From: Mobula hypostoma
Lineage: Eukaryota
NCBI RefSeq assembly: GCF_963921235.1
Contig: NC_086097.1
Location: 53,570,001-53,634,000, forward strand
Direction of reading: 5' to 3'
Length of the DNA: 64,000 bases
This document shows positions 1-27,811 of the stretch, piece by piece. Below the pieces are notes generated by a model that had not been told where the DNA came from, made no database searches, and saw only the letters and a program-made list of their open reading frames with translations. The position numbers and the translations under genes are program-made. Each line of letters begins with the position of its first letter. Position 1 is the first letter of the stretch.

Positions 1-215
1 AAGGCAGCACTGAACAATATTATTATAAGCACAAAATTAAAAGTAAAATTTCTTACTCTGAAAACAACAACGCATTTTGGATGTATTATCCCTGGACCAT
101 GCATCTATGAGATCAAGTAAACAGGAATTTATACATTTATTTTTAGATGTAAACCAGTGTTTTATCTTTTGAGTACATCTCATCCCCCCTGCCGACTGGG
201 GTGTAGGGATTCCAT
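1..215 (-). pseudogene. Probable start of env (leader-peptide region) of the foamy-like ERV
   Basis: Lies just downstream of the integrase C-terminus. Reads RCTQKIKHWFTSKNKCINSCLLDLIDAWSRDN..., then after a frameshift a hydrophobic NFVLIIILFSAA at the window edge. Positional inference. Confidence 0.4.
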
Positions 216-269
216 GGTGGACCCACGTACTGGTCTAATATAAAAGTTCCATTCATTCTGGGGGAAATA

Positions 270-2605
270 AATCCTGCTGGGGCAGGTCTGATGCTGAGGT
301 CTTATTTCTCCTCCTGGTCACGATTACCACAGTCCTATTGTTAATGACCTGGGCAATGAGACTAGACATTTCCATCTACCATGGAAACTAGGGTCAGAAT
401 TATTTTTCTGGAATTTCCTTTCTTGGATCCAGTCTCCTTTTTGAGGTTTCCAAGTTGTCTTGTCAGATCCTTTTGCTTTTTCTTGAATTCCCATAAATTC
501 TCTCAATTTTTGAGGAGAGTTGTATCAGGTGTAGGTGATGGTTGGCCTGAGTTTGTGATCAGGGTGTATTTAGGTGGACATTTTACATTAAGCAATAAGG
601 TACAACATTCTTGTATGCTCCTATTTTTGCAATGGGCTCTTTTGATTACAGACAGTTGAACTTTAGGGACAAGTGTTGCCTACTTTGCCTCCAGAGTAGA
701 GCAGTTTTGCCAGGCCTCCTGACTCTCTCAATTCCTTCACTGCGTTATGCCACTCGATTGCGGCTGGAATGGAGTGCTGTACTTGAGTTGCATTCCTGTT
801 TGTTCACACATGGCTTCGAAGCTCTTAACCCTGAAGGAAGTCTCTTGGTCTACATGTATGCAGGTGGGGTTGCCAGCACATGGGAGTACGTAGTTATGGA
901 GTGCTGTCTCTCTACAAGAAGCCGTGGAGACTAATCAAGTATATCTTTTGCAAAGACCAGTTATCACAAGAAATATACTATTAGGTTTTCGATAAGGTGG
1001 GTTGTCTTTGGCTGACAGAAATAGGCCTATATAATTAACTTCCACACCCGCGTTGGTGCAGTTGGCTTTGTTTGTCCTATAGGAGGTGGTCTTGTGACTG
1101 CTCCTTTACGATAGACCAGACATTCTTTACCATTTGCAAGAAATCGCTTACATAGTCATACTTTATTGATCCCAGGGGAAACTGGTTTTTGTTACAGTTG
1201 CACCATAGATCCTCAGCACATAAAGCCACCAATATAACATGGCTAATTCTACATGAATGTTGAGTCTAATGCCATGACTGTGTACAAATCCTTGGTGGCT
1301 TTCTCAAATCAGTGCTTCCCACTTGTGGGCATGAGGTACTTGCCTCTTATTTCTTTTAGGGCAGCAAACCCAAACATTATCTTCACCATCAGCTTCATGC
1401 TTGTACTGTGTTGGAAATCCTTTGAGATGGGTTTAATAACATCTAGGAGAATGCTTAAACATCATCGTGATTACTCTTTATTTGTTACTTAGTTACAACC
1501 AAAACCCTGGCCTCCTTTAGCGTAGTAAGGTCCATCTGGCAGCTTGTTTTGCTTCTTTATTACCATAGCTGTGTAAGAGGCTTGCAGTTTGTCCCAGGAT
1601 GTATATCACTTGTACTAATGGTCTAACCAAAATACAAACTGTAAATTCATAAATTTTCTTCCATGTGGACAAATGAAGACGGAGTTTACTACTGTGTGTC
1701 CTCCAACCAGTAGCTGACTGGATGAGAAGATCTCTTTCTACCACGTTCCTGACATAATTAAAAGTAGGACTGGTTCTGTTGCGTTCACTTGTTTTGGACA
1801 TAACTCTAGGCATTGGAACCTGATTTTGAACGACTTGAGTTGCAAGTGCATCTTTTTCTAAAACTCTTGCAACTCATGTGGTTCAGAATCCGTTTCCATT
1901 AAAAAAAAAATCCTTTTATAATCAGGAACAGGGATTATGATTGAGTGAATCCTTATTTCTGGATTTTCATTGCTGGTCCATCACAATACCATATTTGGGA
2001 ATAGGTGTTGTCTTGTAAAAGTACACGGTATCTTCCATATCTCGATATGGTAGCTCTCTGTTCATTTGTTAATAATTTGTTATCATTTTTCAAAGCTGCA
2101 ATTTCTGTTTCTATAATAATTGGCTTGTCCCTTTGCAGTGGAATACCATAGTAAGACGTCGTTTTAAGGCAGTAAGTTTCTGTTCTGTTGGGATGAGATT
2201 ATATGAGGCATAGTGTATGGAGGCTTTGTGTTTCTTCTCCCTCATTATAACAGATAGCACCAGAGATTTTTGAAGAAGCATGAATTTGCAGAAGATATTT
2301 TCTTAGGTCTCTTGTCCGGAGGTCTATTGCTTGCTGAATTGCATTCATCAATTTCTTTAGTGTCTCATAATCTTCTGGGGTAAAAACAAAAGGCTTTCAT
2401 TGTTATGGTTTATCACTGCACTATAATGGTTTAACAATGGGGTATCATCAGGTATGAAAGCTCCAGCATAATTCAATTGGCCTAGGGCTGATTGTAAGGC
2501 TTTTAGGGTCTTTGGATATCCTACTCATGTGACTTTTTGTTTAAATTCAGGGGTTAAACCACGTACCTCTTCGGTAATTTTCATACCTAGGAAATGTAAG
2601 ATTTT
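270..2605 (-). pseudogene. pol: Foamy-like pol remnant (RT thumb/connection, RNase H, integrase); protease and RT palm not seen
   Basis: FLGMKITEEVRGLTPEFKQKV..YPKTLKALQSALGQLNYAGAFIP (foamy FLGFNITKEGRGLTDTFKTKL..PPKDLKQLQSILGLLNFARNFIP); IHYASYNLIPTEQKLTALK; RNase H in ORF 1517..1813 (LHLSTWKKIYE..HSYGNKEAKQAA); IN KGFPTQYKHEADG, YWW, IHVDQ, YSTPFQPQSSG (749-781), WKPQKGDWIQER, VINNRTVVI. Confidence 0.88.
1151..1208 (-). mobile_element. Tiny 5'-truncated LINE 3' tail inserted in the ERV integrase zinc-finger region
   Basis: Minus strand reads ...tttcccctgggatcaataaagtatgactatg. catag is duplicated at 1151-1155 and 1204-1208. It separates YWW from CKRFLANGKEC. Confidence 0.55.
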
Positions 2606-2871
2606 TTAATGTTAATTACATAGTCTCTGTCTCTCACTTTCAAGTGGTGGGTGTTACTAGAAGCCACTGGCCATATCTATGCAAAATCTATATTTTACAG
2701 GTCAATTGCTGTATCAAAACGGCAGGGTCAAATTTTGCCAGAGGCATATGGCAAGATGAGACTAGGTATGCCTATATCCTATTCTTCAGCTGGAGCATGT
2801 TGATTAGAGTTGTTGCTGAAATTCTCCTCACATTAACATTAGCCTTCCCCTTCTTTACATTTTGCTTTCCT

Positions 2872-2962
2872 CTACAGGGAAGGGAGTGGATAGGATTTTA
2901 CAGGGAAAAATCCCTGTAAAAGGGAGTGGATGGGATTTTACAGGGAAGGGAGTGGATGGGGT
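2872..2962. repeat. Short imperfect tandem repeat (tacagggaagggagtggatgggattt-like, ~3 copies)
   Basis: agggagtggat and ggattttacagggaa units recur directly in the sequence. Confidence 0.7.
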
Positions 2963-3483
2963 CTCTGAATGCTCCATTTGTCCCAGAAGGAGTATTTTGG
3001 TCTAAGAATTTCTTCCGCAAGGAAAGGGAGTGGAGTTAAAGGTCACTGAATTACACCTAGTGTCCGGCCATCGAGGTTGTGAATGAGTATCCCTTCCTAA
3101 GGCAGGCGGTCTCCAGGGGACTGGTTCGGTTTGTTGAACTGCTGAGGGGCTGGAGTAGGAGAAAGATGTGAATGTGATCGAACAGAGGAATAGGGTTGGG
3201 TGATGACTTTGTTACCTCGAGGGAAAGGAGGAGGACCCAGTCTCAGCGCCTTGTTGCTCTTCAGTGGGAATGAGAGGTAATCCTGCTACCACCATGTGGG
3301 TGTGCAGGATCTCTTCAACAGCCAGACGTCATTCATGTACCGTATGTTGATTATGGTGTAGAGGCTTTCATGGGGATAAAGGTGTAACATCGCAGAATGA
3401 ACTCAGTCCCAGTCTGCCCTTGCCATTTGATCTCCAATCTTATAAGCTGTTATTAAGCCCTGGCTTTCGACTATTTTACTCAA

Positions 3484-4021
3484 TACAGTACTAAGTCCTC
3501 TACATACAGTACTGCGCACACACACACACGCACAGCTAGGGTGCCTGAGATTTTTGCACAGTACTGTATTTGTCAACATGGAGTGGAGAGCGAGTTTGTG
3601 AATCTGGCAGAAACAAAGGATGCTGGGAATGGCGTGGGCGGAGTGTGGGATGGGTGGCAGAGAAGGAGTGCCTGGGTATGGGGGGTGGTGTGGGTACAGA
3701 CACACCCAGACCTGAGACACCAGGCAAGGTAACTTGATTCCAAACTATTGTTTTATTTATTACAGGATGTCTCTGTGGTGCTTCTCACTCCCTTCCCCCT
3801 TTCCCAAGCAGGATTCCCCTCTACCTGCCCCCTTTCCCACTCTCACTCTACATTAGAGATCCATATCAACATTAGGTTTATCATCACTCACAGGTCATGA
3901 AATTTGTTTTTGTTTTGCGGCAGCAGTACAGTGAAATACGTAAACACTGCTATAGAACTTTGAAAAAGTCTGAGGCACCCTACCTATATATAAGTGCTTA
4001 AGACTTTTGCACAGTATAGTA
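3484..4021. mobile_element. Non-autonomous repeat with Tc1-like terminal motifs
   Basis: Motifs resembling Tc1 TIRs (gtgcctgagatttttgcacagtactgta; aaaagtctgaggcacc..agacttttgcacagta) at both ends. Interrupts the gag-like region. Confidence 0.4.
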
Positions 4022-4430
4022 TGTCTGCAATATTTATTTGTTTATAAATTCACACATATATCTGACATGGATTTCCACAAGGCTATTGGAAATAACATTA
4101 ATAAGAATTGCTAAATATGTTGGGCAGTATGACTGGCCCAGAAGGCAGCTAAGCTCCTGGCATTATTTCAGATCAGCCAGATGCATGGTGAATACGGCTT
4201 GCAAACTCTGAATAGTCAAAAGTTCAAAAACTTGATTGGAAGTTCGTACTGGGGAAGCTGCAGTGGCTCCCTGTACAGGAACCTGTCCCTGTATGCGTCT
4301 TTTACTGGTTATAGTCAATCTTCTTATTAATTCTAGTGAATGTTCCCAAGCTCCATTCTCCAGGCTTCATTAGTACTTCTAAACTTTACTAGTGTGGGCG
4401 CTACCTCGCGTGTGCTTGGAAGGAATACAC

Positions 4431-4670
4431 CAGCGGTCCCCACCCACCGGGCCGCGGACCGGTACCGGGCCATAAAGCGTGCTACCGGGCCGCGAGGAAA
4501 CGATATGATTTGGCGATATGAGTCAGCTGCACCTTTCCTCATTCCCTGTCACGCACTGTTGAACTTGAACACACCCCACCCCCCCCCCCCCCCCCCCCCC
4601 GTCAGCGGGTCCTCAAGAACATTGTCAATATTAAACGGGTCCGCGGTGAAAAAAAGGTTGGGGACCCCTG
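4431..4670. mobile_element. hAT (Charlie-type) MITE
   Basis: TIRs cagcggtccccacc / ggttggggacccctg; perfect 8-bp TSD gaatacac (4423-4430, 4671-4678); shares sequence with the element at 61747-62532. Confidence 0.9.
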
Positions 4671-5269
4671 GAATACACAATATCCCCATGCATCGGGATT
4701 AAGCTATGGGTCACTGGGCTCTTCATATGGTCTCCACCCAGATGCTGTTTCTATCTAAAAAAAGAACCAATTTGTAGTCTCCAGGCATGAACTATTACTA
4801 TATTGTTGATATTTTGTACAAATTGTGTTGATCTCGATCAGTAATTTTTATAGTGGTGTTTGATCTGTAATCTACATCATACTCTATGCTCTAACCCTTC
4901 ATCATTCCAGACTCTGACTTGAAGAGTAAAATATTCATCATGTTCAATCTGAGGAACAGTTGGGTATTATCCCTTATTTCTGATATCTTATTCATAATAT
5001 CGACCAGTATTTGCCTGCACAACTGCTGGAAACCAGGATGCTGACCATTTTATAGTACCAGGTAGGGTGCCGTAGCACTTGCTGAGAGCTCTCTGAGTTG
5101 GACTACAGCTAAATAATAATTCTTTCTAAAATAATACTGATATTATTTGAATTAATGTGACCATGTCAGGCACCAACTGTAGTAGAGTAGAGCTACTAGG
5201 ACTTGATGTTTCAATCCCTATGGTAAGTTGGCACTCTCGATGTTGGCAGTGGGTTTGGAGTGGTGACAA

Positions 5270-5833
5270 GGAGGGTAGATACCTCATCGGGGTCAACAGG
5301 TGGGCACCCTCCTTCTTTGACGTTTCGTTGATAAGCCCACGACGTCTCCAGAGGGCTCAACTGTGCTACCTGGCGTCCCAGATACACCCCCCCCCCCCCA
5401 GTTCCATACCCTCCTGTCTTCATCTTGCAGCCCAGTTGTTGTCTTTAGTTTTAATCCAAATCCAATTGCTGCTTCCTTCTGCTGCATTTGACAAGGATTT
5501 GGTTGCTTGTTGGAGGGAGTGACCCCTCACCCCCATCTTCTTCAATAGACTGGTCATAGATGTAGCAACGAATCCCCTGCATCCCACTTCTACAGGGAAA
5601 ATCTTGGTCTTCCAGCCATTCTGGGCAGCTTCATTTGCCAGTTCAGAGTACTTGGTCTTTTTCCTCTCATAAGCTTCTTCGACACCATCTTTCCATGGTA
5701 CTGTCAATTCCACAACATATGCCAGCTTGGCTGTTGTGGACCACAGGACCATGTCTGGCCAGAGTGTTGTAGCTGCAATGTCTGGGGGAAACACATCATA
5801 TTGGGTTTGCTGATTGCGAAGGTCTAAACTCAA
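5270..5833 (-). mobile_element. 3' fragment of a non-LTR retrotransposon with restriction-like endonuclease (HERO/NeSL/R2-like)
   Basis: ORF 5420..5833 contains PDMVLWS..YVVELTVPW..AYERKKTKY..FPVEVGCRG, a typical RLE domain. The 3' UTR boundary is approximate. Confidence 0.8.
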
Positions 5834-8800
5834 ATGATATAAACAGCCACAAGTACTTTCACTAAAGGGAGTTTATACTGTGACTACCCAATCATCAAAG
5901 ACTAGTTCCTTTCCCTGTTTATTCTACATGGTGAGTTTACCTTCCATTACCTACTATTCAAACGGTGGGTTCGCTATCCCTACTACAGAAGTTTAAAACC
6001 TAGTTCATTTATTTTCAATGGTACTTGTTTAAATCCAAACAGCACTCTAAAAAAACATTTAAAACTCACAGAGGATTTCTATCTTAAACATTTCCAAGTT
6101 ACAGACCATTTCTAAAACACAAGCCATTTCCTAAAACATAGGTACAATTCCCATAAACAAAAAAGACATACCATGATGCTGCTGAACAAGTTATCTGTTG
6201 CAGAAACCAAAGCTCGAGGAATGGATTCTCGTTCACCCCATGTTTCTTTCAGGTTTTTTCTTGATGTTCCTTATCCCATTGCTAATAAGCCTGAGCTGCT
6301 CTCTACATTTACACCCTTTCTCTAGCACTTGCATGACTTTAGACATATGATATTTCCCCAGACATCCTCTTAACGCAAACGAAGACATAGACCTCAACTA
6401 AGTCTGTAAGTGTTGTAAAACTAACTTCCTTGAGTACATAAAACCTTCTTACTATATATACATCAGTTATTGATATGCTACAAGATATCTTCCATCTGTT
6501 CTGCAACTTCCTTGAACTAAGCAACTTAAAAGTCGGCTTGGCTATTTGAAACAACACAAAGTAAATAACCCATTGTATAATATTACTCTTTGAGCAGTAA
6601 TAAAGAAGGTGCAGTTACCTACATCTTTTTTTCCCACAGAGTGTGCTATAAACAGAACTCGGTTGCTAAGCTATATTTCAACTTCAACTTGATAACTGCT
6701 TTCCATTTACATTTCAAGAACTGAAGATGAACTCCCATATACGAGCAGAAACTAAACAAACTATTAGTTGGAAGTTTACTTGCATCTGTTTTTATCTCTA
6801 CAAGTGGCAGATGCTGTGTTTAGAAAGCTGAGATTATCAAACATAAGAGAGAGGTCTACTGGCCTAGGACAGTGAACATCCATCACAATCCTACATGATG
6901 GGCCTGTCTGGAATGAGGCTCAAGTCCTTCATTAATATTACCATGAAGACAACAGTTCACCCCAACAAAGTCTTATAAGAAATTTGAATACACAAAAGTG
7001 TATCAGTGTGGAGGCTAACAAAATAAAAATGATTTAAGGAAAAAAAGACCTAAATGCAACTTGTTAATTTGCTATTTAGATTGAATAGTTTATAGAATAA
7101 CCTGCCACTTAAAATTTTGAATGCTGACTCAGCTGAAACATACACATAATAAATGAACAGATTTGGGATTCAGTTGGGAGTTAGTCAGGCTTAATGCCAA
7201 AGTACAATGTGCTGCATATACAAATAAAGGTATTTATTTAGTAATTCTGGATCCTCCAAATATTCTCCACTTCAGTTCTCAGTCAGAGGAATTTATGTTT
7301 TAAAAGTTTGGCTGCTTTGAATTATAAACTTTGCACTCTAGTAACAGCCTCTGGTGATGTGTGGGAGTTAATTTGTATTGTACAGGAATTTTGGCTTCAA
7401 AATGCAGTTTCACAAGGGAAAGAAAACGAACTACTATTTCCAAAGGAAGTAAATTGTTTGAAAAATGTGTTTGTATTTCTTATAAGCAGTTCTAAGTAGT
7501 CTTTCCATTGTACTATGGCAAAATTCTTTCAATCTTTGTCAATACTAGCTTAAAAAAAGTATCATTTATAATAAAGGAATCTGAACTTTGATTTTATGAA
7601 CTTAAGCCTGGCAGTAAGCCATTTATTTATTACTGCCAGTGTTAGAATGAAGGCCATTTGGAAAGGCCAGCTGCAACGAGCACTTGCCTTTCAACTGGCA
7701 ATGTGGTGCTCCATGGCTTCCTGCCACTCAAGCACATTAATTTCATTTGAAATTTTATTTATATTAAGATGAGTTGCAAAAATGTTTTTATGAAGGAACA
7801 ATAGAGCTCCAAACTTTCATAATTTTACAGCAAATAGGAATCTAAAATCATCCTTTTGCTTAAAGGAACAACGTTGATCTCTGTCTATTCAAGTTGAAAA
7901 CTATGTTGTGTTAGTGGACAGGGGTGAGGCAGGAAAAATCAAACTCATGGTTTAAAGTGGTAACATTACCAAAGTAACTATTCTCTTGTTCATTAATGAA
8001 ATACTAAAGCAAGAGAACAGCGCCAAGCATGTACACATTTATTATGCACTTAATGTGGTATTTTAATAATTTTGTTTACAATCATTATAAATAGCTGAGA
8101 TAATGAAATCCAGTCCAAGTACTCCTAGTTTATGGATAATACCAAACAGTGTTGATAATAACAACCAAAATGCAATAATCCAAAATAATCTGGATAGGTG
8201 AGGTTGCTGGGCAGACTGAGATTCATACATAAAAATGTAGTTTCAAAATCTAATTCTGGAATGTTAAGCCTAAGCACTCTACAGACTAAATTGGAAATCA
8301 AAAACCTCAGACTTGAATTGCTAACAGTGTTTGTCTTTTCACCGATGCTGCCTAACATTTTATATCTCACCTGGGGTTCTCTATTGCACTTTTTCCTTCC
8401 ATTAATAGAGAGGGGAGAAAAGGAATTATTAGGGCGAGTACAACATAGGAATAGAAGTCTGATTTTTGAACTTCGAAGACCTGAGACATAAAGTTGTCCA
8501 ATTTGAAAAAATGTAGTTGTAGATTATAGAAACTGAAAAAAAATGTTAATAATTATCATGTTATGGAAATACTGAGAGAAGAGAGGAAGTCCTAAAGAGA
8601 GAATTTAGAGAGCTAGTAGAAAGCTGGAAAACAGGACATCCAGGGTAACCATCTCTGGATTGCTGCTTGTTCCACATGCCAGTGAGGGCAAGAATTCTTG
8701 GCAGCTGAATATGTGTGTGTTCTTGGCAGATGAGTATGTGGCTGAGGATCTGGTGCAGGGGGCAGGGTTACAGATTTATGATCACTGGGATCTCTTCTGG

Positions 8801-10279: not shown

Positions 10280-11625
10280 CCTGGCCATGCTGTACTGCCA
10301 TGGACTCAGAGATAAACTAAAGGATGTCCTTCGGTAATCTCAGATTCCAGGCCTTTATAAACAACGTGCTCTGGGATGTTCTCCATAGGTACGCTTCATC
10401 TTACTTGGATGACATCATAATTTTCTCAAAGTCCACAGAGGAGTAGATCAGTCACTTCAGAGACATCCTAAAGAGGCTTCATGATCATGGAGTTTTAGTA
10501 AAGCTGGAGAAGTCTGAATTTCACGTAACCCCTATTTCTTTTACGGGTTCATCATCTCTAATGGCAATCTCAAGATGAACCCTAGTAAGATACAGGCAGT
10601 TGGAGACTGGCCATCACCATCCATCATCCATTGTGGGATTTGCCAACTTTTATTAAAGGTTTGTCAGAAGTTTTAGCCCCGAGGTGGTTCCACTGACAGC
10701 ACTGACCAAGAGAATCTCGAGCCCTTTCGTTTGGACTACTGAGGCAGAGGCTGCTTTCGCAGAGCTCAAACAGCGGTTCCTGGCTGCTCCCAGTTTGGTT
10801 GCACCTAACCCAGACCTTCCCTTCATCATGGAAGTCAACACTTCAGACGTCAGAGTGTTTGCAGTGTTGTCTCAACGGACGCCTTCGGACAATAAACTGC
10901 ACCCGTGTCTGTTCTTTTCCAGCCGACTATCCTGGGCAGAGGTGAATAATAACATTGGGAATAGAGAGCTGCTCATGGTCAAGTTAGCTCTGGAGGAATG
11001 GCGTCTCTGACTTGAGGGGGTCAAGAACCCTTCTATCATATGGACGAACCACAAGAACCTGGCTTATATTCAGGAGGCCAAGAGACTGAATTTCAGGTAG
11101 GCAAGGTCGTCTCTTTTCTTTAAGTCCTTTAATTTAGTCCTAACTGATCGACTGGCATCTCAGAACCAGAAGCCCGATGCCTTGTCTCGTCAGTTAGACA
11201 AACCCGAACAAGGAAAGCAGCCTACCACCATTTTGCCCCAAGTGAAGGTGATAGCACCAACTTGTTGGGAGATTGACACACTTGTTTGCAGGGCTTGGGT
11301 GCAAGGGGAGATTCCTCAGAATAGCCCTTCGGGTTGGCTGTTCACTCCTAGTCTTGAATGGTCTCAGGTTCTCTGAAGGGGACCTGCATTGAGATTCACA
11401 TCTCACCCAGTGATTGCCATAACCCTCAAGTTCAATAAGAGAAGATATTGGTGACCTGGAATGGTGAGGGAGATCCGTCAATATGTGCTGGCATGCAAGG
11501 TGTGCGTTGGAACAAGGAGACCCATACCCTACCTCAAAGGCTCCTTCACCCTCTGCTTGTTCTGGAAAGACCATGGGCTCATATCTGCATGGACTTTGTC
11601 ACGGATCTTCCTCCTTCCAAGGGGA

Positions 11626-14146
11626 CCTGGATGGTAGTTTGCCTCCCTGAAGCCAGGGTCCGGGATGTTTCTGATCGCGTCCAAGATATCCTGAAGTGGG
11701 AGAGTGAGGAGCCAGCAGTCGTGGTACATATAGGTATCAATGACATAGGTAGGAAAAGGGAAGAGGTCCTGAAAGGAGAATGTAGGGAGTTAGGAAGGGA
11801 GTTGAGAAAAAGGACCACAAAGGTAATAATCTCAGGATTACTGCCTGTGCCACGCGACAGTGAGAGTAAGAATGGAATGAGGTGGAGGATAAATGCATGG
11901 CTCAGGGATTGGAGCACGGGGCAGGGATTCAAGTTTCTGGATCATTGGGACCTCTTTTAGCACAGGTGTGACCTGTACAAAAAGGACGAGTTGCACTTGA
12001 ATCCGAGGGGGACCAATATCCTGGCGGGGAGATTTGCGAAGCCTACAGGGGAGACTTTAAACTAGAATGGTTGGGGAGTGGGAATGAAATTGAAGAGACT
12101 AGGAGAGAGGAGGTCAGTTCACAAATAGAGAAAGCTAGTAGACAGTGTGTGAGGGAGGATGGGCAAGGGACAAAGAATGGGAGTACACAGACCGAAGATG
12201 CAGGGGAGAAGGAAGGAAAAGATAACAAAGTTGTTTGCACCATTAGGGATAAACAGAGAGTAAGAGGTGGAGAATTTCTTAAATCCATCTATTTTAATGC
12301 TAGGAGCATTGTAAGAAAGGTGGATGAGCATAGAGCATGGATTGATACCTGGAAATATGATGTTGTAGCTATTAGTGAAACATGGTTGCAGGAGGGGTGT
12401 GATTGGCAACTAAATATTCCTGGATTTCATTGCTTCAGGTGTGATAGAATCAGAGGGGCAAGGGAGGGGGTGTTGCATTTCTTGTCAGAGAAAATATTGC
12501 AGCGGTGCTTTGGCAGGATAGATTAGAGGACTCGTCTAGGGAGGATATTTGGGTGCAATTGAGGAATGGGAAAGGTGTAGTAATGCTTATAGGGGTGTAT
12601 TATAGACCACCTAATGGAGAGCGAGAATTGGAGGAGCAAATTTGTAAGGAGATAGCAGATATTTGTAGTAAGCACAAGGTTGTGATTGTGGGAGATTTTA
12701 ATTTTCCACACATAGACTGGGAAACCCATTCTGTAAAAGGGCTGGATGGTTTGGAGTTTGTAAAATGTGTGCAAGATTTTTTTTTGCAGCAATACATAGA
12801 GGTACCAACTAGAGAGGGGGAAGTGTTGGATCTCTTGTTAGGGAATGAGATAGGTCAGGTGATGGAGGTATGTGTTGGGGAGCACTTTGGGTCCAGTGAT
12901 CTTACTGAATTTTTTGAAGAGATTACTAGGAAAGTTGACGAGGGTAAGGCAGTGGATGTTGTCTATATGGACTTCGGTAAGGCCTTTGACAAGGTTCCAC
13001 ATGGAAGGCTAGTTTGGAAGGTTCAATCGTTAGGTATTAATATTAAAGTAGTAAAATGGATTCAGCAGTGGCTGGATGGGAGACTCCAGAGAACAGTGGT
13101 GGATAACTGTTTGTCAGATTAGAGGCCGGTGTCTAGTGGTGTGCCTCAGGGATCTGTACTGGGTCCAATGTTGTTTGTCATATATATTAATGATCTGGAT
13201 GATGGGGTGGTAAATTGGGTTAGTAAGTATGCAGATGATACTAAGATAGGTGGAGTTGTGGATAATGAAGAAGGTTTTCAAAGCTTGCAGAGAGATTTAG
13301 GCCAGTTAGAAGAGTGGGCTGAAAGATGGCAGATGGAGTTTAATGCTGATAAGTGTGAGGTGCTACATTTTGGTAGGACTAATCAAAATAGGACATACAT
13401 GGTAAATGGTAGGGCATTGAAGAATGCAGTAGAACGGGGAGATCTAGGAATAATGGTGCATAGTTCCCTGGAGGTGGAATCTCATGTGGATAGGGTGGTG
13501 AAGAAAGCTTTTGGTAAGCTGGCCTTTATAAATCAGAGCATTGAGTATAGGAGTTGGGATGTAATGTTGAAATCATACAAGGCATTGGTAAGGCCAAATT
13601 TAGAGTATTGTGTACAGTTCTGGTCACCGAATTATAGGAAAGGTGTCAACAAAATTGAGAGAGTACTGAGAAGATTTACTAGACTATTACCTGGGTTTCA
13701 TCTCCCAAGTTACAGAGAAAGGTTGAACAAGTTGGGTCTTTATTCTTTGGAGTGCAGAAGGTTGAGGGGGGACTTGATAGAGGTATTTAAAATTATGAGG
13801 GGGATAGATAGAGTTGACGTGGATAGGCTTTTTCCATTGAGAGTGAGGAGATTCAAACAAGAGGACATGAGTTGAGAGTTAAAGGGCAAAAGTTTAGGGG
13901 TAACATGAGGGGGAACTTCTTTACTCAGAGAGTGGTAGCTGTGTGGAATGAGCTTCCAGCAGAAGTGGTTGAGGCAGGTTCGATGTTGTCATTTAAAGTT
14001 AAATTGGACAGCTATATGGACAGGAAAGGAATGGAGGGTTATGGGCTGAATGCAGGTCGGTGGAACTAGGTGAGAGTAAGAGTTTGGCATGGACTAGAAG
14101 GGCCGAGATGGCCTGTTTCCATGCTGTAATTGTTATATGTTTATAT
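11626..14146 (+). mobile_element. CR1 LINE, 5'-truncated and internally deleted, inserted in the chromovirus integrase
   Basis: ORF1 SGNH esterase ([19 protein letters not shown]); APE (YFNARSI, VAISETWL, GDFNFP); RT (GVPQGSVLGP, YADD). Gypsy IN resumes as GKTIIMV after 14146. Confidence 0.93.
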
Positions 14147-15190
14147 GGGAAGACTATTATCATGGTAATTAGATTAGATTAGATCAGATTAGATTATGGA
14201 TCATTGTGGATCCATAATTGCCGGTCATTTTTCAAACGCTTGCAAATTCATTGCCTTGGACAGACTTCCATCTGCAGTGGAGTTGGCCGAGATAGTCCTG
14301 CAGCAGGTCTTCAGGATCCATAGTTTCTCAGCTGACATTGTGTCAGATTGTGGTCTGCAATTTGCATCATGTTTTTGGAGGGCGTTTTGCAAACTTATTG
14401 GGGGCAACGGCGAGTCTTTCCTCTGGGTTTCACCCACAGTCCAACAGCCAGATGGAGCAGGTGAACCAAGATATGGTCTCTGAGAGAGCAAACAAGTGGA
14501 TTGACCATTTGATGTTAGCGGAGGTTGCCTGCATCTCCTTACAACATTCAGTGCATGGGATGTCTCCTTTCGAATGCCAATTTGGGTATTCTCCGCCACT
14601 CTTCCCTGAGTAGGAGGGAGAAGTTGGAGTTCTCGCAGCTGAAGATCTCGTCCGACACTGCAAGGAGAAATGGACTATGGCAAGGGAGATTCTGTTAGCT
14701 TCTACCTGGAAGGCTGAAGTAAAGGCTAACTGCAAGAAAATACAGGGACCAGTTTTGCAACCTGGGAAAGAGGTCTGGCTGTTAACTCAGGATTTGCCTC
14801 TAAGTGGAATTCAGGAAATTTGTGCCCAAGTTCATTGGACCCTTCAGAATTCTCAGGGAAGTAAACCTGATGGCCTGCACTTTGCAGATCCCCAAGACCC
14901 TCAGGATCAATCCCACTTTGTACGTTTGCAAGGTAAAGCCTGTGAACACCAGCCTGTTAGTTCCACAACCATCAGCCCCACCGTCACCCCGGTTTGTTGA
15001 TGAGGAACAGGTATTCACTCACATATTGTTTGAGGCATTCAGCAATATCTCATGGACTGGGAAGGATTCAGACCTGAGCAGTTCTGGGTGCCTGAAAAGG
15101 ACATCTTGGACCTGGCTCTCATCCATAACTACAATCATCGTCTCTCCAAGCAGCCAGGGCCATCAAGAGCCAGCCTTAGGGGAGGGGGCC

Positions 15191-15496
15191 TGTTACAACA
15201 CGCACCCATCCAACCAGCTTCTGAGGTTCAGATGCTCTAACTCCCTGGAGCGTGGATAGCTGGCGCAGCCACTTTGAAGAGTCAGGACAGTCCCGCTAAT
15301 TGGCAGTCATGTTTTGGGTGCCAAGGGTCAAGCATTTAAGGAGCACCTGTATTGAGATTCGGTGCTCAATTGTAAGCCTACTTGTGATTTTGTCTAGTGT
15401 CTGGTTTGTGCTCAGATTGATACTGTGTCTCAATCCTTGCCCCTGGGTGCTCCAGCTTTTGGGTCCAAGCCATCCTCGTCAAGGACTCTCGTCACA
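15191..15496 (+). repeat. 3' LTR of the chromovirus
   Basis: tgttacaaca...ctcgtcaca, preceded by a polypurine tract. Confidence 0.9.
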
Positions 15497-18871: not shown

Positions 18872-19591
18872 AATCGCGAAAAAAAGGAAGAGAAGACAGG
18901 TAAAAGGTGTCACAGTTACAGCTACCGTCAAGTTTAAGCCTACAAGGTAATCTTGCTGAGAATTGGAAAATATGGATCCAGAGGTTTGAGCTGTTTTGCA
19001 CCGCTACCGGCATAGCTGAAAAGACGGAGGAAGTGCAATGTGCTACATTTCTGCATGCGGCGGGGGAAGAGGCAATAAAGGTTTGCAACACGTTTGTCTT
19101 CCAAGATGATGAGCAAGATTAAGTTGAAGTGTTGAAGAAAAAGTTTAAAGATTACTGCGAACCGAGAAAAAACCTACTGTACATCCGACACAGGTTTTTC
19201 ACGAGGGCTCAAGGACCAGTAGAGACCATAGACGCCTATGTAACAGATTTGAAGAGCAAGGCAAAAAACTGTGAGTTCGGACAACTGCATGACTCTTTAA
19301 TACGTGACAGGATTGTATACGGCATACGAGATGATCAAGTAAGAGGCAGGCTATTGAGAGAGGCAGATCTTATATTAGGAAAGGTGATTGATGTTTATCG
19401 TGCCAGTGAGATCACGTCAAGTCAGGTTAAAGTGCTCAATGAAGAGATTGAAGTGCACAAAATAAAAACTGTGAAAACTGACAAGAGTAGGACAAACAAC
19501 AGGAATTCTGCAGATGCTGGAAATTCAAGCAACACACATAAAAGTTGCTGGTGAATGCAGCAGGCCAGGCAGCATCTCTAGGAAGAGGTGC

Positions 19592-19627
19592 AGTCGACGT
19601 TTCAGGCCGAGACCCTTCGTCAGGACT
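19592..19627 (-). ncRNA. Minimal type I hammerhead ribozyme motif (Penelope pLTR)
   Basis: Minus strand: agtc CTGACGA agggtctcggcct GAAAC GTC gact. Confidence 0.75.
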
Positions 19628-19918
19628 AACTGAAGGAAGAGTGAGTAAGGGATTTGAAAGTTGGAGGGGGAGGGGGAGATCCAAAATGATAGGAGAAGAC
19701 AGGAGGGGGAGGGATGGAGCTAAGAGCTGGACAGGTGATAGGCAAAAGGGATACGAGAAGATCATGGGACAGGAGGTCCGGGAAGAAAGACAAGGGGGGG
19801 GACCCAGAGGATGGGCAAGGGGTATAGTCAGAGGGACAGAGGGAGAAAAAGGACAGTGAGAGAAAGAATGTGTGTATAAAAATAAGTAACAGATGGGGTA
19901 CGAGGGGGAGGTGGGGCA

Positions 19919-20926
19919 TTAGCGGAAGTTAGAGAAGTCAATGTTCATGCCATCAGGTTGGAGGCTACCCAGACGGAATATAAGGTGTTGTTCCTCCAAC
20001 CTGAGTGTGGCTTCATCTTTACAGTAGAGGAGGCCGTGGATAGACATGTCAGAATGTGAATGGGATGTGGAATTAAAATGTGTGGCCACTGGGAGATCCT
20101 GCTTTCTCTGGCGGACAGAGCGTAGGTGTTCAGCGAAGCGGTCTCCCAGTCTGCGTCGGGTCTCGCCAATATATAAAAGGACACATCGGGAGCAGTGGAC
20201 GCAGTATATCACCCCAGCCGACTCACAGGTGAAGTGTTGCCTCACCTGGAAGGACTGTTTGGGGCCCTGAATGGTGGTAAGGGAGGAAGTGTAAGGGCGT
20301 GTGTAGCACTTGTTCCGCTTACACGGATAAGTGCCAGGAGGGAGATCAGTGGGGAGGGATGGGGGGGACGAATGGACAAGGGAGTTGCGTAGGGAGCGAT
20401 CCCTGCGGAATGCGGCGGGGGGGGGAGGGAAAGATGTGCTTAGTGGTGGGATCCCGTTGGAGGTGGTGGAAGTTACGGAGAATAATATGTTGGACCCGGA
20501 GGCTGCTGGGGTGGTAGGTGAGGACCAGGGGAACCCTATTCCTAGTGGGGTGGCGGGAGGATGGAGTGAGAGCAGATGTACGTGAAATGGGGGAGATGCG
20601 TTTAAGAGCAGAGTTGATAGTGGAGGAAGGGAAGCCCCTTTCTTTAAAAAAGGAAGATATCTCCCTTGTCCTAGAATGAAAAGCCTCATCCTGAGAGCAG
20701 ATGCGGCGGAGACGGAGGAATTGCGAGAAGGGGATGGCATTTTTGCAAGAGACAGGGTGAGAAGAGGAATAGTCCAGATAGCTGTGAGAGTCAGTAGGTT
20801 TATAGTAGACATCAGTGGATAAGCTGTCTCCAGAGACAGAGACAGAAAGATCTAGAAAGTGGAGGGAGGTGTCAGAAATGGACCAGGTAAACTTGAGGCC
20901 AGGGTGAAAGTTGGAGGCAAAGTTAA
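19919..20926 (-). pseudogene. Penelope RT thumb plus GIY-YIG endonuclease (5'-truncated, frameshift at a poly-G run ~20415-20426)
   Basis: ORFs 20346..21008 and 19919..20812 together give INFASNFHP..FLDL..LRLRRICS..CESAGVIYC..LYIGETRRRL..PDGMN. Confidence 0.88.
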
Positions 20927-21061
20927 TTTGTCCATTCGTCCCCCCCATCCCTTCCCACTGATATCCCTCCTGGCACGTATCCGTGTAAGCGGAACAAGTG
21001 CTACACATGCCCTTACACTTCCTCCCTTACCACCATTCGGGGCCCCAAACAGTCCTTCCAG

Positions 21062-21388
21062 GTGAGGCAACACTTCACCTGTGAGTCAGCTGGGGTGATA
21101 TACTGCGTCCGCTGCTCCCGATGTGGCCTTTTATATATTGGCGAAACCCGACGCAGACTGGGAGACCGCTTTGCTGAACACCTATGCTCTGTCCGCCAGA
21201 GAAAGCAGGATCTCCCAGTGGCCACCCATTTTAATTCCACATCCCATTCGCATTCTGACATGTCTATCCACGGCCTCCTCTACTGTAAAGATGAAGCCAC
21301 ACTCAGGTTGGAGGAACAACACCTTATATTCCGTCTGGGTAGCCTCCAACCTGATGGCATGAACATCGACTTCTCTAACTTCCACTAA
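21062..21388 (+). pseudogene. Second, inverted copy of the Penelope GIY-YIG endonuclease domain
   Basis: FTCESAGVIYCVRCSRCGLLYIGETRRRLGDRFAEH..LEEQHLI..PDGMN. Confidence 0.88.
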
Positions 21389-21679
21389 TGCCCCATCTCC
21401 TCCTCGTACCCCATCTGTTACTTATTTTTATACACACATTCTTTCTGTCACTGTCCTTTTTCTCCCTCTGTCCCTCTGACTATACCCCTTGCCCATCCTC
21501 TGGGTCCCCCCCCTTGTCTTTCTTCCCGGACCTCCTGTCCCATGATCTTCTTGTATCCCTTTTGCCTATCACCTGTCCAGCTCTTGGCTCCATCCCTCCT
21601 CCTCCTGTCTTCTCCTATCATTTTGGATCTCCCCTTCCCCCTCCAACTTTCAAATCCCTTACTCACTCTTCCTTCAGTT

Positions 21680-21715
21680 AGTCCTGACGAAGGATCTCAG
21701 CCTGAAACGTCGACT
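21680..21715 (+). ncRNA. Minimal type I hammerhead ribozyme motif (Penelope pLTR)
   Basis: agtc CTGACGA aggatctcagcct GAAAC GTC gact. Confidence 0.75.
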
Positions 21716-21969
21716 GCACCTCTTCCTAAAGATGCTGCCTGGCCTGCTGCGTTCACCAGCAACTTTTGAGAGTAGGACAAAGCCGGCGCCACAGGATGAT
21801 CAAAAGGAAGTTAACTGCAACAGATGTGGTTATCGACACGGATACAGAAAATGTCCAGCCTTTGGTCAGACATGCAAGTTATGCCAGAAAAGAAATCAAT
21901 TTGCAAAGATGTGCAAATTGAAGGAGCACGCGAGGAAAATGCATGCTGTGGAACGGAGGGCAAGAGTGA

Positions 21970-22615
21970 CATGTTCATTGGCACAGTTGAAGTGGAACAG
22001 GAGGTAAGCATCAAGAAAATTGGCAATGCAGAGATGGAGGATGAAAATGGTTGGACTCAAGATCTGATAATAAACAGGAGGAATGTGACATTTAAGCTTG
22101 ACGCTGGGGCAAAGTGCAATGTAATGTCAGCAGAAACATTCAACTCACTGGACATCAGAGGAAGACTGAGAAAATCCACCTGCAAGCTTGTTGCATGTTT
22201 CGGTCACAAGACGACACCACTAGGGAAAAAAGCACTCACCTGTGTGTACAAAGGTCAAAAATACAAGATTGAGTTTGAATTAGTGCAGCAACATGTTCCA
22301 GCAATACTGGGCAAAGCAACATGCCCAAAGCTAGGCCTGCTGAAGCGAATCTATGGTGTTGAAAAAGAAAATGACATTCTCAAAGACTTTGATGACTTGT
22401 TTTCTGGATTAGGATGTTTACCAGGGAAACACCATATCCTGATTGATGCAACTATTGCACCAGTCGTGCATGCCCCGAGAAAGATTCCAGTAGCTCTCTG
22501 GGATCAAGTAGTGGAGGAGCTACACAGAATGGAGCAGATGGGAGTCATAACGAGACAAATAGAACCGACCGACTGGGTGAATAGTATGGTGACAGTGGTC
22601 ACAGAAAAAAGATGA
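21970..22615 (+). pseudogene. Gypsy protease and RT N-terminus, frameshifted relative to the downstream pol ORF
   Basis: FKLDAGAKCN (DTG-type protease site), ILG, PVVHAPRKIP, TDWVNSMV. Confidence 0.85.
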
Positions 22616-25092
22616 GGATTTGCATGGATCCACAAGATCTCAACCAAGCCATCAAAAGAGAGCACTATCCGCTGCTCACGGTTGAAGAGGTTGTCTCCAG
22701 CATGCGTAATGCAAAATACTTTTCAGTATTAGATGCAAATCAAGATTTCTGGCAGATCAAGCTGGATAAAGAAAGTTCCAAATTACGTACTTTCAACACG
22801 CCTATAGGGAGATATCGTTTCCTGCGTCTACCCTTTGGGATTTCTTCTGCATCAGAGGTATTCCAGAGATCCGTGGCACAAATGATTGAAGACCTGGACG
22901 GGGTGGTCAACATCACTGATGGTTTGCTGATATGGGGTGACACAATTGAGGAACATGATCAGAGACTGAGGAAGCTCCTGGAGAGGGCAGGTGAGTACAA
23001 CCTAAAACTGAACAAAAGTAAATGTCAGATCAGAACTACAGAGATCAAATACATAGGTCATGTACTCAGCGCTGATGGGCTAAAACCAGATGATGAAAAG
23101 GTCAGAGCTGTGGTACAGCTACCACCACCCAAAGACAAGCAAGAACTATTGAGGTCCATGGGCATGATACAGTATCTTGCCAAGTTCATTCCCAACTTAT
23201 CAGAGGTCAGTGCTCCACTCCGAAAGCTACTAGAGAGCAACACTGAATGGCATTGGGAAGATGAACAAAAGAAAAGTTTTGACACATTGAAGCAGTTGGT
23301 TACCAATGCACCAGCACTCAAGTTCTATGATGTCAATAAACTGCTGGCGATGTCTGTGGATGCCATTTCGGAGGGAATAGGAGCTGTTATACTGCAGGAT
23401 GAGAGGCCTGTGGCGTATGGATCACGAGCACTTACGGACTGTGAACGCCAATATGCTCAAATCGAGAAGGAATTACTCGCCATAGTTTATGGGTGTGAGA
23501 AGTTCCACCAATATGTATATGGCAAAGAAATCCAGGTTGAGAGTGATCACAAACCACTTGAGAGCATCTTCAAAAAGCCACTCTACCAAGCTCCTATGAG
23601 GCTGCAAAGGATGCTTCTCAGGCTACAGAGGTACACTCTCACAGTCACCTATAAGCCAGGAAAAGAACTGTACATCGCTGATGCTTTGAGCCGTGCTTAC
23701 CTCAAAGAGCAAAAGGAAGAGTTGCTAGGAAGAGAGCTGGAGGGCAACTGGGTTACACCTCAGCTACCCATCTCTGAGGACAAGTTGAACATGTTCAGGA
23801 AAGTGACTGCAGATGATCCTGAAATGCAAATGCTAAGAGACATTACAATGAATGGTCGGCCAACAGAAAGAAAAGATGTTCCAAAGGAAATGCAGAGATA
23901 CTGTACATTTGAAGAGGAAATCAGCTATGCATCAGGACTAATGTTCAAAACGGCAAAACTCATCATACCAAACCAAATGAGACAGGAAATGCTCAACAGG
24001 ATTCACGAGTCACACCTGGGGATAGTGAAATGTAAAGAAAGAGCAAGGGACATTCTCTATTGGCCAGGCATGTCAACTCAGATAGAAGACATTGTGTCTC
24101 AGTGTGCTGTCTGTAATGAAAACCAAAACAGTAAACCAAGAGAGCCTTTGCTTCCCCATCCACTACCAGGAAGACCATGGGAGAAGACTGACACAGATCT
24201 CTTTCACTACAATGGTGCAGAATATCTGCTTTGTGTGGACTACTATTCAAAATATCCGGAGATCACCAAGTTAAGTGACACGTCCAGTCGAGGTGTCATT
24301 ACCGCAATGAAGTCAACATTCACAAGACATGGTGTTCCAGATATTGTCGTTAGTGACAATGGTCCACAATATGCCAGTGGCGAGTTCAGAGAGTTCTCAG
24401 AAAGCTGGGAATTTCAACATGTTACTTCCAGTCCAGGGCACGCTCGGTCTAATGGACAAGCAGAGAGAGCTGTACAAACTGTCAAGAACATGCTCAAGAA
24501 GGCACAAAGCAGCAATGGTGACCCTTACATTGCTCTGCTTGAATATCACAACACACCGATTGAGGGTGTGGGGTTCTCTCCTGCGCAGCTGTTGATGGGA
24601 CGTTGTCTGAAGTCCAAACTGCTAACATCCACAACTCTACTGACCCCTGAAGGTAACGCTCAAGTACGTGACAAGCAAAAGTACAAGCAAATAAAGCAAA
24701 AGAGCTACTATGACAGACATACAAGACAGTTGCCAGATCTGCATACAGGTGAAAATGTCAGAATACAGAGAGGAGACACTTGGCAACCAGCTGTGGTTGT
24801 GAACAGACATCAGCAACCAAGGTCCTTCATAGTTCGCACGCCGGATGGAAGAGTCTACAGGAGGAACAGGAAGCATCTGCTGAAGACAGGCGAGAGGGAG
24901 TTTCCACGTACAGATGCACAGGACATTTCCACAGATACAGACATGGAAACAAACAACACCAAGAGTGATGCAGACCGCAAAGACACAGAGACCACTCGAG
25001 AGACTGACACGGATGAAAGTCAAGCACAGTCACAGTTGTATCACACACGGTCTGGGAGACAAGTCAAACTTCCAGCTAGATACAGAGACTAG
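22612..25092 (+). CDS. pol: Gypsy pol ORF (RT, RNase H, integrase), 826 aa, probably inactive
   Basis: RLPFGISSA; RT catalytic motif altered to NITDG; DAISEG, YAQIEKE, SDHKPL; HxxH..CxxC; SDNGPQ; NGQAERAV. Confidence 0.85.
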   Translation: MRICMDPQDLNQAIKREHYPLLTVEEVVSSMRNAKYFSVLDANQDFWQIKLDKESSKLRTFNTPIGRYRFLRLPFGISSASEVFQRSVAQMIEDLDGVVNITDGLLIWGDTIEEHDQRLRKLLERAGEYNLKLNKSKCQIRTTEIKYIGHVLSADGLKPDDEKVRAVVQLPPPKDKQELLRSMGMIQYLAKFIPNLSEVSAPLRKLLESNTEWHWEDEQKKSFDTLKQLVTNAPALKFYDVNKLLAMSVDAISEGIGAVILQDERPVAYGSRALTDCERQYAQIEKELLAIVYGCEKFHQYVYGKEIQVESDHKPLESIFKKPLYQAPMRLQRMLLRLQRYTLTVTYKPGKELYIADALSRAYLKEQKEELLGRELEGNWVTPQLPISEDKLNMFRKVTADDPEMQMLRDITMNGRPTERKDVPKEMQRYCTFEEEISYASGLMFKTAKLIIPNQMRQEMLNRIHESHLGIVKCKERARDILYWPGMSTQIEDIVSQCAVCNENQNSKPREPLLPHPLPGRPWEKTDTDLFHYNGAEYLLCVDYYSKYPEITKLSDTSSRGVITAMKSTFTRHGVPDIVVSDNGPQYASGEFREFSESWEFQHVTSSPGHARSNGQAERAVQTVKNMLKKAQSSNGDPYIALLEYHNTPIEGVGFSPAQLLMGRCLKSKLLTSTTLLTPEGNAQVRDKQKYKQIKQKSYYDRHTRQLPDLHTGENVRIQRGDTWQPAVVVNRHQQPRSFIVRTPDGRVYRRNRKHLLKTGEREFPRTDAQDISTDTDMETNNTKSDADRKDTETTRETDTDESQAQSQLYHTRSGRQVKLPARYRD

Positions 25093-25489: not shown

Positions 25490-27009
25490 GTACCAATGTG
25501 TTTTTTTTTGCTGGTGGGGGGTGGGAGGATCGTTGCTTGCTGCTGCTTATGCGGGGGAGTGGGGAGCTGGGAGGTACTTTAGGGTTCTCATGTCTAACTG
25601 TTGTTCATTCTTTGGGGCACTTCTCTGTTTTTGTGGATGTTTGTGAAGAAAAAGCATTTCAGGATGTATATTGTATACATTTCTCTAACATCAAATTGAA
25701 CCTTTGAACCTTTGATTAGGAAAATGGGCAAGGAGGTGGCAGATGGAATACTGTGTCAGGAAGTGTATGGTCATGCACTTTAGTAGAAGGAATAAAAGTT
25801 TCTATTTTCTAAATGGAGAGACAATTCAAAAATCTGAGGTGCAAAGGGATTTGGTGTCCTTGTGCAGGATTCCCTAGAAGTTATTTTGCAGGTTGCACGG
25901 ATGGTGAGCAAGGCAAATGCAATGTTAGTGTTCATTTCAAGAGGACTAGAATATAAGAGTAATGCTGATGCTGTACAAGACACTGGTGAGGGCTCACTTG
26001 GAGTATTGTGAGCAGTTCTGGGCCCCTTATTTAAGAAAGAATGTGCTGACATTGGAGAGTTCACAAGAATGATTTTGGGAATGAAAGGGTTTTCATTTGA
26101 GTAGAATTTAGAAGAATGAGCAGGGATTCTCAATGAAACTTATTGAATGCTGAAAGACCTAAATAGAGTGGATGTGAAGAGAATATGTCCTTTGGTGGGG
26201 GAGTCTAGCACAGCCTCAAAATAGAGGGATGTCCATTTAGATCAGAGCTGAGGAGGTATTTCTTTAGCCAGATGGTGATGAATGTATGAAATGCACTGTC
26301 ACAGGAGGTCGTCGAGGCCAGGTCTCTGGGTGCATTTAAGTCAAAGTTTGATAAGTTTTTGATTTGTCAGGGTGTGAATGGTTATGGGGAGAAGACAGGA
26401 AAATGTGATTAAGAGGGAAGTAGATCAGCCTTGATGAAATGACAGAGCAGACTCAATGAGCCAAATGGCCTAATTCTGCTCCTATGACTTGTGTCTTTTG
26501 GAGATCTCGTTAAACATGCAAAATTCTTACAGGGTTTAACAGACTGGAAGTAGGAAGGAAGTTTCCCCTGGAGAGAGTGAGGGTAAGGGTCTCAGACCAA
26601 TAGACAGTCTCAGAAAGTAGCATAAACCATTTACTTTTGAGATGAGAACTAGCAACAAACAGCTTATGGCAAGAAATATTAACCCTGTTTCACTCACCAC
26701 AGATTTTTCCTGAATATTTCCAGGATTTTCTGCTTTTATTTTGGATTTCTAGCACCATCAGTCTTTTGGATTTTCATTTACTGGGGAAGAACTTCTGTAC
26801 TTAGAGGATTGGGAAGCTGTGAAATTCTTTATCACAGAAGGCTGTGGAGGTCAAATTTCTGAATGTATTTAAGAATATTTAGCTGGATTTCTAGACATTT
26901 CAATGCACAATTACACTTACTAGCAGAGCAAAGAGCCTGGAAAGCTTACTGCTGCTCCTGTTTTTCTATGTTTCAACATAAAAGGTGCAAAAGATAGGGA
27001 ATATTAAAT

Positions 27010-27811
27010 CATGGCAGATGGAGTTCAACCCAGATAAGTGTGAGGTGGTTCATTTTGGTGGGTCAAGTATGACGGCAGAATATATTATCAATGGCAAGAC
27101 TCTTGGCAGTGTGGAGGATCAGAGGGATCTTGGGGTTCGAGTCCATAGGACACTCAAAGCTGCTACACAGGTTGACTCTGTGGTTAAGAAGGCATACGGT
27201 GTATTGGCCTTCATCAATCGTAGGATTGAGTTTAAGAGCCAAGAGGTAATGTTACAGCTATATAGGATCCTGGTCAGACCCCACTCGGAGTACTGTGCTC
27301 AATTCTGGTCACCTCACCATAGGAAGGACGTGGAAACCATAGAAAGGGTGCAGAGGAGATTTACAAGGATGTTGCCTGGATTGGGGAGCATGCCTTATGA
27401 GAATAGGTTGAGTGAACTTGGCCTTTTCTCCGTGGAGCGACGGAGGATGAGAGGTGACTTGACAGAGGTATACAAGGTAATGAGAGGCTTTTCCCCAGGG
27501 CTGAAATGGCTAGCACGAGAGGGCATAGTTTTAAGGTGCTTGGAAGTAGGTACAGAGGAGATGTCAGGGTTAAGTTTTTTTTTGTTTTTTTTTTTACGCA
27601 GGGTGTGGTGAGTGCGTGGAATGGGTTGCCGGTGGCGATTGTGGAGGTGGAAATGATAGGGCTTTTTAAGAGACTCCTGGATGACTACATGGAACTTAGA
27701 AAAATAGAGGGCTATAGGTAAAGCCTAGGTAGTTCTAAGGTAGGGATATGTTTGGCACAGCTTTGTGGGTCGAAGGGCCTGTATTGTGCTGTATATTTTC
27801 TATGTTTCTAT
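27010..27811 (+). mobile_element. CR1 LINE 3' fragment
   Basis: WQMEFNPDKCEVVHFG..YCAQFWSP..ERVQRRFTRML; ttctatgt tail. Confidence 0.92.

Follow-up and report, generated by a model that had tools for sequence, protein, structure and literature searches.

Foamy viruses (Spumaretrovirinae) are set apart from all other retroviruses by the hallmark of a separate, spliced Pol. According to the available part of PMC7828637, the Spumaretrovirinae, mammalian foamy viruses among them, make Pol separately from a spliced mRNA and package it through RNA. The arrangement of gag, UAG and pol in one frame is described as the gammaretrovirus layout in the available part of PMC4178896.

Foamy-like endogenous retroviruses (FLERVs) have been described from cartilaginous fish. 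CmiFLERV comes from a chimaera (Callorhinchus), as the earlier note on the locus studied here had stated, and the accessible sections of PMC5512871 place the chimaera FLERVs outside the tetrapod/lobe-fin clade. In the accessible sections of PMC10699275, ERV-Spuma.0-Sca from Scyliorhinus canicula groups with teleost FLERVs; two skates and a sawfish were also screened, and no element is listed from them in those sections. Among the openly accessible papers listed by literature searches, neither a ray FLERV nor read-through in any FLERV was found. Further literature drawn on, each in its available part, comprises PMC5210030, PMC6001957, PMC6955096, PMC4422223, PMC3386198 and PMC8227577.

The locus described here lies in a 64,000-nucleotide stretch of the genome of the ray Mobula hypostoma (NC_086097.1, positions 53,570,001 to 53,634,000), referred to as the window. 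Coordinates are those of the window unless a locus is named, and all viral features are on the minus strand.

A Decayed Foamy-Type pol

The earlier note, made from the sequence alone, had read positions 270–2605 as the broken pol of an endogenous foamy-like retrovirus. All 11 motifs that it quoted were recovered from the minus strand in the order it gave; they are distributed among three frames and run from 2593 to 322. The prototype foamy virus motifs that it cited for comparison hold up as well, with six of seven verbatim in the human spumaretrovirus Pol P0098 and the remaining one in P0097 and P0004. The pol is real, but the span covers only its 3´ two-thirds and the provirus is larger: upstream of the span come RT motif A (2677), the protease site (2715), gag, the primer binding site and a 5´ LTR, and downstream of it comes env.

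In the direction of transcription, the start of the protease is fused by a deletion to RT motif A, after which a second deletion removes motif B and YxDD, the centre of the RT (2630..2778). The RT thumb and connection follow (2003..2630), with about 100 bases missing at 2003 from this copy alone, and then a decayed RNase H (1540..2003). The integrase (290..1470) retains a foamy-type N-terminal extension, the HHCC region, the core and the C-terminal domain; a short host repeat is inserted at about 1152–1225, and two of the three catalytic positions are lost. With 16–19 stops and 6–10 frameshifts counted over pol by frameshift-aware alignment, the window copy is dead and has no likely function.

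In the same frameshift-aware alignment, the window pol scored 387–453 against four foamy-type Pols and 83–175 against ten other retroviral or Gypsy Pols; eight shuffles gave 46–65, and the wrong or reversed strand 37–48. A search of the PDB with one window frame, carrying X at stops, returned foamy Pr125Pol as the top match (E 7e-12) and the PFV integrase second (E 2e-8), with the HIV integrase far lower (E 2e-4); a second pol frame had no match there. Among 1.84 billion protein representatives, feline foamy virus Pol was the best of ten matches in total (E 1e-21), and four others were Gypsy-like or unnamed integrases (E 1e-5 to 6e-4). The window frame had no match among 2512 candidate long proteins, and a search of viral contigs returned no relative.

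The Surrounding Provirus

Mapping against nine widened sibling copies gives the order 5´ LTR, tRNA-Lys primer site, gag, pro-pol and env. The 5´ LTR (5799..6887, about 1.1 kb) matches both ends of C68, a two-LTR copy, as well as solo LTRs, and is disrupted a few bases short of its own 3´ end by a LINE insertion. This insertion (5180..5798, minus strand) is the 3´ piece of an unrelated, non-viral non-LTR retrotransposon, absent from the sibling copies and of very high read depth. It gave no Pfam match at E<0.1, and we take it to be HERO/R4-like, with a restriction-like endonuclease motif. The primer binding site (5161..5175) complements the 3´ end of the host tRNA-Lys(CTT) at 11 of 15 bases, and over 16 copies a mean of 10.6 of 15 positions match. 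The family thus has the tRNA-Lys1,2 primer that characterizes the Spumaretrovirinae, apart from positions 16–18, which are mismatched with the host tRNA-Lys.

The gag region (2782..5000) is broken and its start codon is not fixed; it is colinear with that of the siblings and interrupted by host repeats at about 4450–4670 and 3510–4020. Gag_FV_central was detected at about 3349–3498 with an E of 2.5e-4, under the Pfam cut-off; the domain was not detected in nine gag frames of three siblings, making one match in 15 gag-region frames overall. No Cys-His box (CCHC) was seen in the gag of five decayed copies. The 5´ part of env, including a hydrophobic leader, occupies positions 1..260; further pieces of the gene are scattered over the 10 kb preceding the window (L021 10000–9830, 8316–8197 and 7600–5780). 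Homology to foamy Env comes from the sibling L031, whose env frame matches Foamy_virus_ENV with an E of 6.7e-9 (34.5 bits, cut-off 27) and the window-locus env (L021) with 58% identity over 62 residues. This was the one match among 15 env frames (1 of 12 in siblings, 0 of 3 at the window locus). The same 15 frames contain no detected Ig-like domain, and two PDB searches with env frames returned nothing.

A search of the 30 kb beyond the window revealed neither a 3´ LTR nor an accessory region of the window copy. Sibling copies have in common a Cys/Tyr-rich region of 1.3–1.5 kb from env to the 3´ LTR (L023:2600–3900, L035:8050–9560, L054:2550–3734), a candidate site of accessory genes that has no Pfam match in six frames. 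The family LTRs end in an 8-base inverted repeat, and the LTR is preceded by a polypurine tract. Out of 30 LTR loci fetched, both ends could be called in 18, of which six have an exact 4-bp target duplication and none one of 3, 5, 6 or 7 bp; mean identity at 4 bp was 0.57, compared with at most 0.46 in shuffles. The family as a whole has the build of a provirus, with LTRs, a primer site, a polypurine tract, a target duplication and gag-pol-env.

Phylogenetic Placement

Trees from two parts of Pol were compared. In a quick RT tree of 94 rows, 11 family rows group with seven foamy viruses, the Logan protein P0005 and a catshark fragment (SH-aLRT 99). A careful RT tree of 33 rows joins the family to the mammalian foamy viruses at 100/98, and the teleost elements branch next to this group; six copies were read in it against a teleost-type guide, which biases against a foamy placement. 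Within that tree the family forms a clade with P0005 and P0008 (Scyliorhinus torazame GCB66461.1) at 91/91, and P0005 is sister to the family at 87/75. The RNase H–integrase tree, of 33 rows and with the window copy included, places the family with P0005 (98/96) as sister to newt and mammalian foamy sequences (100/98); its copies were read against P0005, so the pairing with this protein is open to guide bias. The teleost rows were taken to be FLERVs from their hosts and tree position.

The family thus lies with the foamy viruses and away from the teleost foamy-like, class I and Gypsy sequences. The proposal in the earlier note of a spumavirus-lineage provirus is borne out by the RT and RNase H–integrase trees and by the foamy Gag and Env signals in Pfam, although the gag–pol layout differs. 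Membership of the foamy lineage, comprising foamy viruses and FLERVs, is almost certain. It is scarcely credible that a Gypsy, class I, ERV-L or lokiretrovirus-type element merely resembles foamy viruses here. The four Gypsy-like or unnamed integrase matches speak for such an element, as does the make-up of the trees, which include no named ERV-L or lokiretrovirus rows. However, the unnamed rows that may represent these groups or snakehead-like elements fall outside the foamy clade in the 94-row tree, and the alignment scores, the trees and the foamy Gag and Env matches oppose this reading and largely refute it. Membership of the Metaviridae would imply an RT grouping with Gypsy and no retroviral env, and the family shows neither.

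Copy Number, Age and Deletion Classes

Searches were run over the 3.48 Gb genome of the host. One globin exon of this genome scores 87 bits against PDB 1cg5, a stingray chain, 61 against 1gcv, a shark chain, and no more than 55 against other single chains, as suits a ray; the six entries ranked higher are fused human constructs, with two stretches of some 46 bits each where displayed. In the first search for the family, 40 of 1570 candidates were scored and yielded 40 loci, the other copies being mostly 68–79% identical. The second used the protease-RT region of a sibling as query; of 119 candidates it yielded 40 loci, three of them common to the first. By hand count over both searches, the family has at least 77 internal loci, in addition to many solo LTRs.

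The window locus was recovered at 98–99% identity in runs of a second organism label, with one contig spanning the LTR–host junction, and in a third label one piece spans the LINE–LTR junction. Because these junctions occur in them, the insertion is older than the split of these organism labels. Three LTR pairs differ by K2P distances of 0.20–0.24, compared with 0.22–0.27 among LTRs of different loci, and none of the pairs has a confirmed target duplication; the date from C68 is doubtful because its flanking target duplication is mismatched. At the rate of 0.5e-9 assumed in the available part of PMC10699275, the insertion would be, loosely, some 200 million years old, or 50–80 million at a rate three to four times faster. 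A tree of 24 copies is star-like, and differences among copies are flat over codon positions (0.24/0.21/0.25), a comparison in which no purifying selection among them was seen. Together, the tree and the flat codon positions indicate a single burst followed by neutral decay.

Comparison of the copies shows two amplified deletion classes, one lacking gag and the other, to which the window copy belongs, lacking protease and RT sequence. Motif B and YxDD are missing, between identical breakpoints, from seven of 11 loci compared at the RT centre, the window copy among them; one locus keeps both and three are uninformative. The protease Asp lies 38–70 bases from RT motif A in five of these seven, as against 686–716 in four RT-bearing copies. 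The RT-less class clusters more than in any of 500 shuffles, yet it has no branch support in the 24-copy tree. In 19 of 30 RT-bearing loci a single junction links early gag to the protease site, as it probably does in two more; four keep gag, four are uninformative, and one combines a different gag deletion with a deletion of the RT centre. Because a search most readily picks up the copies that resemble its query, these counts are not genome-wide proportions. Copies of both classes keep env, which others have lost.

The gag-less junction lies about 20 codons past the TAG that ends gag, in a short repeat present on both sides, such as template switching would leave. Splicing was ruled out as its source, the junction being devoid of GT-AG signals. 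It is in frame in 6 of 13 loci measured, the commonest length being 123 bases.

The gag–pol Boundary

In the window, gag is separated from the protease by an in-frame TAG (2779..2781), in the same frame as the protease. In a probe of the fetched loci, TAG occupies this boundary in 8 of 10 distinct loci and another codon in two, and a G follows it in most copies. Five of nine loci measured have the protease Asp in frame 75 bases past the TAG (63 in the window), and in three damaged loci of the nine it is out of frame. No common start codon for Pol was found, an in-frame ATG being present in two of nine loci, at differing places. The 120 bases upstream of the TAG contain six stops in the gag/pro frame, whereas the other two frames have 30 and 25; codon positions directly upstream of the TAG gave no coding signal. 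A conserved hairpin past the TAG was unsupported in eight copies, with z-scores from −0.9 to +0.7.

The single frame with its TAG, the lack of a common Pol ATG and the likeness to the gammaretrovirus layout are the reasons for preferring read-through as the source of Pol. At the sequence level the family does not appear to have a separate Pol made without a Gag–Pol fusion, as the Spumaretrovirinae have, and for this reason it is kept out of Spumaretrovirinae proper. As far as its sequences tell, it is foamy-like rather than a textbook spumavirus, differing in gag–pol layout.

Origin and Propagation of the Family

The account that we consider probable is that of an old, multi-copy foamy-lineage retrovirus with one burst, gag-UAG-pol read-through and two deletion classes copied by helpers. 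As sequence comparison shows, a family organized as LTR-gag-pro/pol-env-accessory region-LTR entered the germ line of an ancestral ray, multiplied in a short burst and has decayed neutrally since. Pol was most likely produced as a Gag–Pol fusion by occasional read-through of the UAG at the end of gag, as in gammaretroviruses, and not from a spliced mRNA. During the burst, template switching probably produced both a gag-less form, in which the first part of Gag is joined to the protease, and the form of the window copy, devoid of protease and RT centre; complete helpers would then have copied both in trans. Against this account stand the missing hairpin, the two loci of ten with no TAG and the want of a coding signal just upstream of it. 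So do the single open gag–pol frame of P0005, the closest relative found, the foamy Env and Gag signals in 1 of 15 frames each (that for Gag under the cut-off), deletion classes that are not supported clades, and trees that include no published shark, coelacanth, reptile, ERV-L or snakehead references.

The prevalence of the gag-less form, the commonest among RT-bearing loci (19, probably 21, of 30), would also suit a tight stop at the TAG, with Gag supplied by TAG-bearing copies and Pol by the gag-less class. In that class the stop is lost with the deleted sequence, so that a short Gag start runs into the protease, and its Pol would be packaged with neither capsid nor nucleocapsid, as in foamy viruses. 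The 6 of 13 in-frame junctions, the absence of a read-through structure and the packaging of foamy Pol through RNA (in the available part of PMC7828637) agree with such a division of labour. However, the other seven junctions are out of frame, four loci (L140, L142, L160 and L167) have gag, protease and RT and are possible helpers, and with no read-through the parent virus would have had no Pol before the deletion arose. We regard this scheme as unlikely, and give the same standing to the wider idea that the family, placed just outside the tetrapod foamy viruses, records the step from fused to separate Pol while propagating as two complementary halves. A spliced Pol mRNA as in true foamy viruses, with TAG-G as the 3´ splice site and an upstream exon giving the start codon, is also unlikely. 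The G after TAG in most copies fits an acceptor, and Spumaretrovirinae as a rule make Pol from an mRNA of its own by splicing (PMC7828637, available part), but a pyrimidine tract is absent by eye, a splice would not require gag and pro to keep the same frame, and the gag-less junction follows no AG and sits in its short common repeat well past the TAG. It is very unlikely that the parent had one open gag–pol frame and that the TAG is a lesion of a master copy spread by an unrecognisable helper. Such a frame does exist in P0005, which both trees make the sister of the family (87/75 and 98/96); nevertheless, the TAG is found in complete-type and RT-deleted copies alike, exactly at the gag/protease boundary, and no gag-bearing class lacking it was found.

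Comparison with Described Elements

Mammalian foamy viruses (FFV, PFV, SFV) provide the best named Pol matches, at about 31–34% identity over some 650 aligned residues. The ray family resembles them in its Env domain, in a Gag domain signal under the cut-off, in its Lys primer and the order of its genes, and in having further sequence after env and before the 3´ LTR; no Cys-His box is visible in it. It differs in the common frame of gag and pro, interrupted by a TAG, in the want of a shared Pol ATG, in an env that seems shorter (700 codons by rough estimate), in an accessory region with no Pfam match, and in being endogenous and dead.

Like the ray family, CmiFLERV and ERV-Spuma.0-Sca are multi-copy, decayed foamy-like elements of cartilaginous fish, as far as the available parts of their descriptions go. 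Unlike them, the ray family falls with the tetrapod foamy viruses in a group that leaves out the teleost elements. It is likely an undescribed lineage, as the earlier note had suggested for a ray host, set apart from the chimaera and catshark elements by their partly available descriptions only. P0005 and P0008 share its clade in the RT tree and are only about 31% identical to it. P0008 is fragmentary and is joined to a predicted host gene. P0005 is a foamy-lineage Gag-Pro-Pol in an uninterrupted frame of 1687 residues, with an ordinary retroviral protease domain and not one of the foamy A9 type; an atlas search with its Gag gave a top score of 0.85, taken as a lead only.

Read-through in Moloney murine leukaemia virus is stimulated by a pseudoknot, which is not detectable in the ray family. 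That virus belongs to a different subfamily and has the same one-frame gag-UAG-pol with a G past the stop (PMC4178896, available part). If this layout truly holds in a foamy-like ray lineage, it would date the separate Pol to after the split from the viruses of cartilaginous fish. It would also hint at how early foamy viruses made their enzymes, which is testable in younger relatives. The family further fills a gap, the rays, in the hosts available to studies of virus–host co-divergence.

Other Elements in the Window and Genome

Decayed pieces of Gypsy-type LTR retrotransposons occupy 10500–11600, 14800–15260 and 19120–25090 of the window, including an 835-codon Gypsy-type RT–RNase H–integrase frame at 22585–25092. 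The pieces at 11600–13875, 19919–21388 and 26982–27611 are taken to be of two kinds, CR1-like LINEs with a GDSL esterase frame and Penelope-like elements in inverted arrangement.

Elsewhere in the genome, loci L108–L137 belong to other retroviral families, whose pol frames are open over as many as about 1400 codons, in at least four clades outside the foamy group. The loci from a search with feline foamy Pol were rejected as family members: none of 30 was similar in DNA, and the 13 placed in the tree fell outside the foamy clade. The RT of the sibling L024 (G000:C12:128.61 Mb) contains a young repeat of about 870 bases (6625–7500). L024:6300–6900 was discarded as a family query, its search of the host genome having returned only this kind of unrelated young repeat. 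The searched part of the L024 repeat is 98–100% identical at 39 other places, several of them paired about 4 kb apart, as the LTRs of a recently active element would be. Finally, more than 20 globin exon matches at G000:C36:102.3–103.2 Mb mark a large haemoglobin array.
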